Part shown: one piece after another, positions 33,358-36,468 of the stretch
Numbering within the stretch: position 1 is the first letter of the stretch
Layout of the letters: every line of letters starts with the position of its first letter
Assembly: GCA_964291405.2 (NCBI GenBank)
Contig: OZ219926.1
Location: 1,312,001 to 1,376,000, forward strand
DNA: 64,000 nt
Direction of reading: 5' to 3'
From: Thermodesulfobacteriota bacterium
Lineage (GTDB): Bacteria > Desulfobacterota > Binatia > Bin18
Notes under the pieces: generated by a model
The model's input: the letters and a program-made list of their open reading frames with translations, nothing else
The model's database searches: none
Told to the model about the DNA's origin: nothing
Program-made: the position numbers and the translations under genes

Positions 33358-33547
33358 CAACAAGGCTTGACAAAATCAATGAAACGAGAAGATATGGCAC
33401 CAGCTTTTTTTGAGATACCGGGGCATTTTCCTATCGGGATAGACTGCCGGTGAGGTGGCCGCACACTCACTCGTTTCCCATTAGGGCACTGGCTTCTCCT
33501 TCATTGGCATTTTCCTGGAAGACGCTCGGAAAGGGGAGGGAAATCAT

Positions 33548-34072
33548 ATGAGTGACACGATCGACGATCTGGTGGCGCGTCTGACACGCCTGGAAGACCT
33601 CGAAGCCATTCGGCATACGTGGCGGGACTATTGCATGCGACTGGATTCTGCGGATTGGAGTGCGCTCGGTGATGTGTTCACCGAGGACGCCGTCCTCGAG
33701 ATGGATGGACTGGACCATCTGATCGAGGGACTAGATGGTCAGTATTGCGGCCGACAGACGATCATCAACGACTTCTATCGGCAGACCGGGTCTGTGCTTC
33801 CGCACGGCGCCAAGCCACTGTTCGTCACCGGTCATCTCAGCACAAACATGCAGATCGAGCTCCAGGGCGACGAGGCCACCACGCTCGCGTACTTTTTCGA
33901 GATCGTCGCGAACGATCGGGTGTTGATCGGGACGTATCAACATCGACTCCGTCGCGAAGCGGATCGCTGGCGGTTTCGCTTCTTGCGCATCGCGATTCGG
34001 TATCGGGCTCGGCTGGAAGCCACGGACGTAGGCGGCCAATCGCTGAACGACATCCTCGCACGTCCGGTCTAG
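33548..34072 (+). CDS. SnoaL-like / NTF2-fold protein
   Basis: RLTRLEDLEAIR....DYC..LD, VFTEDA, G..TI, H.STNM.IEL.GD.A, G.Y...LRRE...WRF. Confidence 0.85.
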   Translation: MSDTIDDLVARLTRLEDLEAIRHTWRDYCMRLDSADWSALGDVFTEDAVLEMDGLDHLIEGLDGQYCGRQTIINDFYRQTGSVLPHGAKPLFVTGHLSTNMQIELQGDEATTLAYFFEIVANDRVLIGTYQHRLRREADRWRFRFLRIAIRYRARLEATDVGGQSLNDILARPV

Positions 34073-34156
34073 CTTATCGCTGGTCGTCCTCCTGAACTCT
34101 TGCGTCCGCTGGACAGGGTGTGAAAGAACCACGGAGAGAAAAACAAGGAGGAAGAG

Positions 34157-35230
34157 ATGGCAGACCCACAGTTTGACCAGGCAAGAGCCGACGCCTTTTC
34201 CCAAAAGATGCTCGGCATCTTAAATGACGCGAGTGTGGCCCAGATGATAGTCATCGGCCACCAAGTCGGCCTGTTTGACACACTGGCCGGCTTAGCCCCC
34301 TCGACGAGTGAGCAGATTGCGGCGGCGAGTGACTTAAACGAACGCTACGTACGCGAGTGGCTCGGAGCCATGGTGACCGGCCGGATTGTAGACTATGACC
34401 CTGCCGGGAAAACCTACCGCCTCCCGCCTGAGCATGCCGCCGCCATCACTCGAGCGGCCGGCCCGAAGAACCTCGCGGCGCTGCTGCAAATGGTGCCAAT
34501 GGTGGCGAGAGTCCAGCAGGGCATCGTGGACAGTTTTCGCAATGGCGGCGGCGTGCCGTATTCAGCGTTCAGCGACTTCCATCAGCTGATGGCCGAGGTG
34601 AGTGGAGCCGTCCACGATGTGTCTCTCGTGAACACGACCCTGCCCCTCGTCTCCCAGCTGGTCGAGCGTTTACGCACGGGCATTGACGTCCTCGACGTCG
34701 GGTGTGGAAGTGGCCATGCGGTCAATCTCATGGCGCAAGCGTTTCCGCAGAGCCGCTTTACAGGCTATGACTTCTCGGAAGAAGGCGTCGCTGCGGGACG
34801 GGCGGAGGCGCAGGAGTGGGGGCTCACCAATACCCAGCTGGCCGTCAAGGATGCGGCCGAGCTCGACGAGGTCAGCCGCTACGACTTTATCACCGCCTTT
34901 GATTCTATCCACGACCAGGCGCATCCCCGCGCCGTGCTCAAGGGCATTGCCCAGGCCTTGCGGCCCGACGGCACGTTTTTGATGGTGGATGTGAACAGCT
35001 CGAGCAATTTGGAGGAGAACCTCGACCATATCCTGGGGCCGATGCTGTATAGCATCTCATGTATGCATTGAATGTCGGTCTCATTGGCCCTCCGGGGTGA
35101 GGGTCTCGGCGCGATGTGGGGCAGACACAAGGCTCAGGAGCTGTTGAGCGAAGCCGGCTTTACTCAGGTCACCATCAAGAATGTGGAACAGGATATGATG
35201 AATAACTACTACATCTGCACGAAGGGCTAG
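34157..35230 (+). CDS. Rv2258c-like class I SAM-dependent methyltransferase with N-terminal winged helix; in-frame TGA (probable Sec305, CMHU)
   Basis: [26 protein letters not shown]; after TGA 35069 the frame continues [25 protein letters not shown].....[12 protein letters not shown] to TAG 35228, which is the conserved family C-terminus. Confidence 0.88.
35086..35105 (+). promoter_or_regulatory. bacterial SECIS-like stem-loop
   Basis: ggccctc-cggggt-gagggtc; loop starts 22 nt after TGA. Confidence 0.65.
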
Positions 35231-35289
35231 CGAAGACGGCGGCATGTGGAGGGGTTAGAGGTTGTAGGGACAAAGATAGGCCGTTGTCC

Positions 35290-36468
35290 TTATGTGGGAG
35301 ATATCTGAGTATCCTCCAGGCTTTCCATTTCCTCCTCCCATGTCATACGCTTCCTCAAGGAGTTCAAGACCGGTTCGGAAGGCAGGGCTTCAGGGAAAAG
35401 GACCCCTCGCTGCGTAATGGTCCCATCGGCTAAGAGCATGATGGCAGCGACCGCTGGTCCGGTGATAATCAGGTTTCGATCGGCTGAAGCCCCACGAAAC
35501 GTACAGCGGGTACGGACACCGTGCTTCTCTCCCTCGACATAGACAACGACCCCAAATCCAGTCCCCTTGGCAGCATCGAGCGCTGTAATCCGCTGAAATA
35601 GTGGGCTCTCGACAAAGTACCGCGAGGTCAAAAACTCCACCATAAAATCAAAGGGGACAATAGGACTCTCGCCAACTTGCAAGGGTTCTGTGGTGCATAA
35701 ACGCGCGTCTCGCAGAAAGGTCAGGAGTGAGTTAAACTCCTCCACCCAATACCCACCCTTACACACGACTGCCTGCGGCTCCTTGAGCAGGGCACGAGAG
35801 GCGTGGAGCATCAAGGGCTCCCCATGTCCTACTACCCGTACGGTCTGCCGACCGATCGGCGGGGGAAAATCTAAGCTTTCCTCCTCTGTCCAGGCCTGGA
35901 TCTCTTGGATCTGGCCAGCGCGACAGACAGGAACAGAGGCGCTCGCCATACCCATCCGATGGATCCACAGGGCGCGGGCAAAAACGCTGATGCTGGCAAT
36001 CCAATTGAGACCAATCCGATCTACGCGCTCCAGCCTATCTGCCCCAGCTCGGGCCCAGAGGTTCGTCAGTCCTGGGGAACCTCCGATTCCCAGGACGAGC
36101 GTACAGCCACGCCGCTCAGCTTCTCCACTATACTGAGCCGCCAGATCACTGACGTTGAGATCATCGTTGATATCGACATAGTGGACTCCCGCCTCTACCG
36201 CAGCGCGCATACCGGGCAGACCCGTATCGGAATACGGGCCGGCAAAGTTGCCGATGAGATCCGTGTTGCGCGCGGCCGCCAAGAGGGCCGTATGATCACG
36301 AATATCCAGACCGAGACCTGCGCTCGCCCCAACCTCTTGAGCAACCCGCTTGGCCCGCTCCCCGTCCAAATCTGAGACGACAAGTTCAGTAATACTGTTT
36401 TCCTGGGCCAAAAGCTTGGCAATCCGAGAGCCTTGGGTGCCCGCGCCTCCGAGTAGCAGCACACGCAT
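35290..36468 (-). CDS. saccharopine dehydrogenase-like oxidoreductase
   Basis: LLGGAGTQG, NFAGPY, A.EAGVHYVDI.DD, G.GGSPGLTN, GHGEP, GVLFPEA. Confidence 0.88.
   Translation of the reverse strand: MRVLLLGGAGTQGSRIAKLLAQENSITELVVSDLDGERAKRVAQEVGASAGLGLDIRDHTALLAAARNTDLIGNFAGPYSDTGLPGMRAAVEAGVHYVDINDDLNVSDLAAQYSGEAERRGCTLVLGIGGSPGLTNLWARAGADRLERVDRIGLNWIASISVFARALWIHRMGMASASVPVCRAGQIQEIQAWTEEESLDFPPPIGRQTVRVVGHGEPLMLHASRALLKEPQAVVCKGGYWVEEFNSLLTFLRDARLCTTEPLQVGESPIVPFDFMVEFLTSRYFVESPLFQRITALDAAKGTGFGVVVYVEGEKHGVRTRCTFRGASADRNLIITGPAVAAIMLLADGTITQRGVLFPEALPSEPVLNSLRKRMTWEEEMESLEDTQISPT

Follow-up and report, generated by a model that had tools for sequence, protein, structure and literature searches.

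The gene considered here lies within a 64,000-nucleotide stretch of DNA from a Thermodesulfobacteriota bacterium (GTDB lineage Bacteria; Desulfobacterota; Binatia; Bin18; assembly GCA_964291405.2, contig OZ219926.1, positions 1,312,001 to 1,376,000 of the forward strand), which in its full length is referred to as the window. Its reading frame opens at ATG 34157, meets a TGA at 35069–35071 (codon 305) and continues through 52 sense codons to a TAG at 35228–35230, just as a preliminary description of the window had reported; the read-through product is 357 residues long, and the 357-codon frame contains this one in-frame TGA only. The peptide around the TGA is SISCMH-U-MSVSLA, a CxxU arrangement. 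On sequence grounds, the gene very probably encodes a 357-residue Rv2258c-type S-adenosylmethionine (SAM)-dependent methyltransferase, in which selenocysteine (Sec, U) replaces the invariant cysteine of the motif H-C-M-(T/S)-V-S-L-A. The parts of the locus are as follows:

34145..34151, + strand: Shine-Dalgarno-like AAGGAGG, 5 nucleotides ahead of the start codon, from the sequence reading
34157..35230, + strand: full read-through coding sequence, 357 codons (UGA as predicted Sec at 305) plus TAG, supported by end-to-end homolog matches
34229..34453, + strand: Rv2258c-like winged-helix domain, residues 25–99 (PF21320, HTH_65; E 7.6e-35, 119 bits, cut-off 24)
34646..35164, + strand: class I SAM methyltransferase domain, residues 164–336, with the UGA inside (PF13489, E 2e-20)
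35060..35062, + strand: codon 302, Cys of the CxxU pair, TGT or TGC in the 19 Sec orthologs
35069..35071, + strand: UGA codon 305, probably read as Sec, aligned with the invariant Cys of the family and TGA in 19 genomes
35072..35227, + strand: post-UGA coding segment, residues 306–357, under purifying selection (pooled pN/pS 0.106)
35086..35105, + strand: upper hairpin of a candidate Sec insertion sequence (SECIS), 7-bp stem GGCCCUC/GAGGGUC and loop CGGGGU, from folding and conservation

The family assignment draws on domain models, a solved structure and full-length homologs. PF21320 scores well above its Pfam cut-off, as does PF13847 (80 bits, cut-off 27, residues 174–290, E 1.4e-22). Because PF13489 covers residues 164–336, the methyltransferase domain spans the TGA, and the glycine-rich motif VLDVGCGSG is read in the predicted SAM-binding loop. 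Rv2258c of known structure (PDB 5f8c) is matched by phmmer with E 5.1e-122, query residues 11–356 against chain residues 24–369; homologs align end to end with the 357-residue product, which starts and ends where the Cys homologs do. For the whole protein, all NCBIfam models stay below their cut-offs, BioC scoring highest at 47 bits (cut-off 185); for the 87 C-terminal residues that surround the Sec, NCBIfam gives no match up to E 10.

Position 305 is opposite a cysteine in every stop-free homolog examined. This holds for all 22 such homologs taken from related genomes, for nine of nine full-length database homologs (62–72% identity), for Rv2258c itself (5f8c) and for all 78 stop-free loci (66 TGC, 12 TGT) in a set of 80 from many phyla, comprising Chloroflexota, Actinomycetota, Cyanobacteria, Acidobacteriota and archaeal metagenome-assembled genomes (MAGs); the two remaining loci carry TGA, and both belong to Candidatus Binatia MAGs. 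TnmJ (8g5s), a more distant protein, has Ser at this site. If the SAM-binding loop (VGCGSG) is set aside, Cys305 is the family's one invariant cysteine, and Cys/Sec305 adjoins a nearly invariant His within the best-conserved stretch of the C-terminal half. The second member of the CxxU pair is less constant: all 19 Sec orthologs have Cys at residue 302, but only 34 of the 80 family loci do, and P0029 and P0046, the two nearest Cys relatives, have Thr there. The preliminary description had placed the UGA of an Rv2258c-like methyltransferase at a conserved Cys and proposed tabulating TGA against TGC/TGT in homologs; Pfam, 5f8c and the Cys alignments bear out the placement, and the tabulation returns TGA in the Sec clade only.

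Several other sequences of the family were noted alongside. The same genome holds three Cys-type paralogs of 33–37% identity by tblastn (genome G000, contig C3, 4893975–4895021, 27830–28876 and 3977508–3978461), which form a distinct subfamily with the motif MGCMSSALSEP or MCCMSSAMSTP and conserve the same Cys. Three homologs of 54–59% identity (L090, L122 and L135) occur in MAGs labelled Bathyarchaeota, Nitrososphaera and Methanoperedens, reflecting either cross-domain transfer or binning contamination. Among public proteins, 40 clusters of 80–97% identity have exactly 304 residues, being truncated at the TGA, and none bears a selenoprotein name; the methyltransferase gene is thus systematically mis-annotated. 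P0039, a public protein of 378 residues and 88% identity, follows the family up to about residue 298 and then continues with unrelated sequence; it looks like the product of a frameshifted or chimeric contig, neither a Cys nor a Sec form.

The TGA is a stable character of this lineage. In the genus sample, the ortholog is present in 12 of 28 genomes, each time with exactly one TGA. A class-wide sample of 401 genomes yielded 19 places with one TGA, namely 12 from the genus itself (g1), six from genus g19 and one from genus g2 of another family. All 19 are at least 85% identical to the gene, all other places (at most 62%) are stop-free, and no orthologous sequence at 85% identity or above has a sense codon at position 305; the 401-genome tally includes one Cys-type row from genome G340 (49% identity). 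A metagenome scan with the degenerate pattern H-U-M-(S/T)-V-S-L-A returned 45 stretches, four of them orthologs of 88–97% identity that all carry the stop; the other 41 bear no resemblance to the methyltransferase. No independent Sec lineage appeared among these 45, in a scan for the exact motif with Ser as TCN that may miss others. Contigs from four public runs of three studies cover 35069–35071, with no variant reported there. The TGA is therefore no sequencing error, since it is present in 19 genomes, two Binatia MAG records and four metagenome contigs and is variant-free in the runs; a check of the codon in public reads, advised in the preliminary description, thus left it unchanged. In two sponge metatranscriptome libraries, contigs run across the TGA and the tail (34988–35395 and 35013–35298), which is compatible with transcription; gene parts lacking such contigs carry no evidential weight. 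Contigs nearly identical to 33500–35400 were seen in sponge metagenome X5 and in sponge metatranscriptome libraries X15 and X16, and the organism appears to be sponge-associated.

The phylogeny of the family points to a single origin of the Sec form. A quick IQ-TREE maximum-likelihood tree with 74 rows groups the 19 Sec sequences in a single clade (Shimodaira–Hasegawa-like approximate likelihood-ratio test, SH-aLRT, 100) nested among Cys forms. Two metagenome proteins of the Cys type are sister to this clade (SH-aLRT 99), all within a large radiation of Cys proteins. The rows comprise 19 of 25 Sec sequences and 55 Cys sequences, the latter being a subset of L026–L047, all of L060–L069, every third of L072–L149 and nine database proteins. 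The six omitted Sec sequences are L059, L197 and L219, all partial, L189, and L070 and L071, which are the same stretches as L017 and L020. Because the Sec clade is nested in the Cys radiation, one Cys-to-Sec change suffices: the Sec form would have arisen once, from a Cys ancestor, within a clade of sponge-associated Candidatus Binatia.

Downstream of the TGA, the sequence evolves as coding DNA. Among 11 orthologs, the pooled ratio of non-synonymous to synonymous polymorphism (pN/pS) is 0.106 after the TGA versus 0.182 upstream, and the variable sites of the post-TGA segment fall 4/3/22 on the three codon positions. Between genera, L015 and L025 differ in this segment by 15 synonymous and four non-synonymous changes, a ratio of non-synonymous to synonymous divergence (dN/dS) of 0.049. 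The tail aligns with the C-termini of homologs and has neither a frameshift nor a second stop across three genera that share the TGA at a synonymous divergence of about 0.6–0.7. What decay looks like in this genus can be seen in genome G019, which has no intact ortholog; a degraded copy (G019, contig C1, 49205–50158) carries nine stops (four TGA, four TAG, one TAA), with some segments still 65–75% identical. The relaxed selection that the preliminary description had named as a sign of a nonsense pseudogene was looked for, and purifying selection was found instead.

The genome is equipped to insert Sec. A tRNA-Sec (69 bits; ARAGORN anticodon tca), selA, selB and selD are all present, which settles a check on the selA/selB/selC/selD set put forward in the preliminary description. 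SelA was found in 26 of the 28 genus genomes, including 12 of 12 carriers of the methyltransferase gene, and in five of five tested carriers of the two other genera. Both SelA-negative genomes lack the methyltransferase gene, and one of them is only 65% complete. In the arrangement of these genes (G000, C3, 2982807–2984246; L001 and L009), the tRNA-Sec on the minus strand lies about 250 bp past the end of the selA match on the plus strand, making the two convergent neighbours. The SelD match (G000, C3, 39564–40481; L011; 308 bits) sits inside a stop-free open frame of 759 codons, which suggests a SelD fused to another domain, without Sec in SelD itself.

None of the genome's 12 molybdopterin-domain matches has an internal stop. 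With no Sec formate dehydrogenase found among them to serve as an internal control, the genome was scanned for TGA-interrupted genes. Of 63 candidates with coding-like sequence on both sides of a TGA, 16 were followed up, and 13 of these (L160–L172), a lower bound, are genes of known selenoprotein families with a domain running across the TGA: four UGSC proteins, five AhpD/CMD-like CxxU proteins, a rhodanese (UQGGIR loop), a DsbA-like UPYC, a PrdB/GrdB-like UPVC and a Prx-like UPYC. Their TGAs lie outside the window:

G000, contig C3, 4698685 (+), 1786108 (−), 687905 (+), 3630639 (−), 3985167 (−), 3329219 (−) and 1470432 (+): TGAs of control genes
G000, contig C3, 4136132 (−), 3555442 (−), 758881 (−), 1781645 (+), 822307 (−) and 1239000 (+): TGAs of further control genes

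With the methyltransferase, at least 14 Sec genes would thus reside in one genome, so that these sponge-associated Candidatus Binatia are rich in selenoproteins. Two other followed-up candidates, L174 and L175, were rejected as ordinary stops, their domains ending before the TGA. At L173 (G000, C3, 4123032–4124894, TGA 4124049 on the minus strand), a PhyH domain (residues 19–206) and a CCG domain (328–409) share one frame; the TGA is at residue 282 in the context VTYUGAALM, with a poor hairpin, and the locus represents two neighbouring genes or else a Sec candidate not yet listed.

The hairpin claimed in the preliminary description, GGCCCTC-CGGGGT-GAGGGTC 3' of the UGA, is present at 35086–35105 in the minimum-free-energy fold and begins 14 nucleotides after the TGA; the first nucleotide of its loop is the 22nd after the UGA, in agreement with that description. 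Its conservation, which that description had asked about, separates Sec from Cys genes. All seven stem pairs are retained in 19 of 19 TGA genes, with CGGGGU or CGUGGU as the loop and a G.U to G-C replacement as the sole stem change, versus two to six pairs (mean 3.7) and no intact hairpin in 15 gap-free Cys homologs; 17 further Cys homologs were set aside because of an indel in the segment. In four of the 15, the SLAL.GEGLG peptide is the same but spelled with different synonymous codons, and the hairpin is lacking; the hairpin is thus no by-product of the peptide. Within the genus, the sole 19-codon window without a variable codon, among 339, starts at codon 303. Ten of the 13 control genes have a 6–8-bp stem starting 9–13 nucleotides after the UGA and a loop of 5–6 nucleotides beginning N-G-(G/U); the methyltransferase hairpin keeps to this pattern in the length of its stem and in its loop (CGG or CGU), though not in its spacing from the UGA. 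Among the 994 TGA-terminated long coding open reading frames (ORFs) of the same genome, the strict descriptor fits only six, and a widened one, allowing the loop to start 16–21 nucleotides after the UGA, only nine, so that the presence of such a hairpin exceeds what chance would give. As in SECIS elements of the E. coli fdhF type, the hairpin is within the coding region shortly after the UGA and has a G near the start of the apical loop; unlike bacterial SECIS elements, it lacks a bulged U or an extended lower stem conserved between genera.

In the selenoprotein reading, a ribosome arriving at UGA305 would find SelB-GTP-Sec-tRNA(Sec) recruited by the hairpin at 35086–35105, Sec would be inserted at position 305, and translation would proceed for 52 codons to the UAG. 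Several observations weigh against it. Selenium incorporation and the binding of SelB to the hairpin are both things that we infer. The loop starts 21 nucleotides after the UGA, compared with 16–19 in the ten controls, and because this is two nucleotides past the control range, the hairpin fits only a range widened post hoc. The 71-nucleotide region folds no better than its shuffles (z = −0.26), compensatory double substitutions are absent from the stem (the orthologs being close kin, at least 85% identical), and the lower-stem pairings differ from genus to genus. Third positions vary at one of five stem sites versus six of nine non-stem sites in the first 51 nucleotides, a contrast that is not significant (hand count over all genera, one-sided hypergeometric p about 0.13). 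An Rfam scan of 34900–35300 with E up to 10 gave no SECIS family, only a chance snoRNA match. Finally, contigs from RNA libraries may contain DNA and are silent on translation.

Three other accounts of the UGA have to be set beside this one. Translation could stop at UGA305 and restart at the AUG of codon 306, yielding a 304-residue protein and a 52-residue peptide that together make one Cys-less enzyme. The TGA is directly followed by ATG in 19 of 19 orthologs, so that reinitiation is formally possible, a further point against Sec insertion, and if the tail were an essential peptide translated on its own, selection on it would be expected as well. However, M306 is ancestral, being found in Cys homologs (MHCM), and the ATG was therefore not created for a restart; codon 306 is preceded by no Shine-Dalgarno-like purine run, whereas the true start has AAGGAGG. 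A split enzyme would moreover lose a residue for which 78 of 78 homologs have Cys, and it leaves unexplained both the clade-specific hairpin 14 nucleotides into the supposed ORF and the Sec machinery in all tested carriers. We consider such a split highly improbable.

A near-cognate standard tRNA, for Trp, Cys or Arg, could instead read the UGA by leakage or in a programmed manner, with no selenium involved. This would likewise keep the downstream frame under selection, and UGA is the leakiest stop codon. Against this, the organism possesses the complete Sec apparatus, its genome holds 13 or more further Sec genes whose hairpins resemble this one, the UGA falls exactly on the invariant Cys, a hallmark of Sec/Cys pairs, and TGA elsewhere ends at least 994 long coding ORFs of the genome; there is very little likelihood that the codon is decoded in this manner. 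That the gene is a recent nonsense pseudogene, with a tail left open by chance or recency, would agree with gene callers stopping at 304 residues in all 40 database clusters of that length. Yet the TGA has been kept over three genera at the synonymous divergence given above, with a tail dN/dS of 0.05–0.1 and no frameshift or second stop, and a pseudogene can be excluded with near certainty because the tail is under purifying selection while the truly decayed G019 copy has nine stops. Decoding of UGA305 as Sec remains the preferred explanation; every test of the Sec-containing Rv2258c-like methyltransferase proposed in the preliminary description that could be run came out positive.

The surroundings of the gene offer less guidance. 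The preliminary description had taken the gene to be apparently co-transcribed with the SnoaL/NTF2 gene upstream. This pairing is not conserved, because the SnoaL_4 gene (within 33548–34083) is intact in seven of 19 Sec loci, reduced to a remnant of 30–93 residues in four and absent from eight, and none of the 32 Cys loci checked has it. In runs X2 and X16, the contigs diverge from the window sequence at 34083, 11 nucleotides after the SnoaL stop. A promoter and terminator scan between the SnoaL and methyltransferase genes found nothing and is uninformative on co-transcription. A conserved neighbourhood was also considered as a functional lead and rejected: in the 3-kb flanks of 80 loci, the commonest neighbour cluster, a LuxR/MalT-like regulator, occurs in ten. 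Other neighbours are lineage-specific, such as the zinc alcohol dehydrogenase and beta-lactamase-like genes in mycobacteria.

What the residue does can be approached through the Sec/Cys pair itself. No function is given for Rv2258c in the papers found that mention it. Residue 305 is predicted to face the substrate, in the stretch that links strand five of the methyltransferase fold to its final alpha/beta unit. Cysteines replaced by Sec in nature are almost always reactive and functionally essential, and it is an established rule, given in reviews, that Sec/Cys pairs point to reactive cysteines. By this rule, residue 305 would be a reactive nucleophile or soft ligand in the substrate pocket, and C302 could be available to form a protective selenenylsulfide. 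The analogy with arsenite methyltransferases drawn in the preliminary description may apply to the CxxC/CxxU subset but found no support: the ArsM model NF008823 scores the protein at 34.4 bits against a cut-off of 263, and C302 of the pair is Cys in no more than 34 of 80 family loci. A wider proposal, which we advance tentatively and hold to be rather doubtful, is that the invariant Cys/Sec305 is a catalytic or substrate-ligating residue across the Rv2258c family, making it a thiol- or selenol-dependent methyltransferase family in which, for example, a soft metalloid or an electrophilic small molecule is held in an intermediate that is covalent or ligated by a chalcogen. If so, the Rv2258c family would differ from ordinary acid/base O- or N-methyltransferases, and the Binatia enzyme would be the first winged-helix small-molecule methyltransferase known as a selenoenzyme, in an undescribed selenoprotein family distinct from ArsM and MduS. 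Sec at 305 would identify this residue of the motif H-C/U-M-T/S-V-S-L-A as central to the function of a widely distributed family of methyltransferases. The Rv2258c family, with its crystal structure solved and no substrate found in the literature, is an orphan that becomes testable in this way, and the gene would add a non-redox-looking enzyme to the selenoproteome of Candidatus Binatia.

Methyltransferases are already represented among selenoproteins. A 2026 review of prokaryotic selenoproteomes (PMC13188914) lists ArsM, two ArsM fusions, MGMT, methyltransferase/UXPK-star and MduS, with no mention of PF21320, PF13847, PF13489 or any Rv2258c-type family. No Rv2258c-type selenoprotein was found in print, in a search beyond whose reach lay Table S2 of deep-Sep (PMC12013277), BSepDB and Haft and Tolstoy (2025). 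The preliminary description did not recall the family among described selenoproteins, which agrees with the review and with NCBIfam, MduS having been compared by its description only. We therefore regard the gene as a well-supported selenoprotein form of a family not found described as a selenoprotein, because the family is absent from the lists of the review, the protein fails existing models, and MduS differs in the number of Sec residues; there is a small though appreciable chance that the family has already been named.

Three kinds of methyltransferase selenoprotein invite comparison. The ArsM-type Sec methyltransferases are class I enzymes with Sec in place of Cys and match the Binatia protein weakly, at the domain level (34, 31, 27 and 27 bits against cut-offs of 263, 575, 510 and 460); the review gives UxxG as their motif, and they lack a winged-helix domain, unlike the Binatia protein with its CxxU and winged helix. 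MduS (PF13649, CxxU, two Sec, WP_332845911.1), which the review attributes to Haft and Tolstoy (2025), is also a methyltransferase-domain selenoprotein with CxxU. PF13649 matches the Binatia protein at 63 bits, as the fifth among 16 matching Pfam families; MduS is listed with two Sec, whereas the Binatia gene has one TGA, and MduS is set apart here by its description only. A marine-algal 'methyltransferase' selenoprotein, described as homologous to a bacterial one (Lobanov et al. 2007, PMC2375036; MT in PMC7539508), resembles the Binatia protein as a predicted SAM-dependent methyltransferase with Sec from marine organisms, these texts giving no domain accession, motif or sequence for it.

Cys-type homologs with 54–64% identity to the Binatia protein come from Chloroflexota, Actinomycetota, Cyanobacteria, Acidobacteriota and archaeal MAGs. 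Rv2258c of M. tuberculosis (PDB 5f8c, 5f8e and 5f8f) has the same architecture and length as the Binatia protein and shares the motif MH-C/U-M-(T/S)-VSLAL; the two differ at the pair of positions discussed above, where Rv2258c has Cys at the U305 site and Leu at 302, whereas the Binatia protein has the predicted Sec at 305 and Cys at 302.

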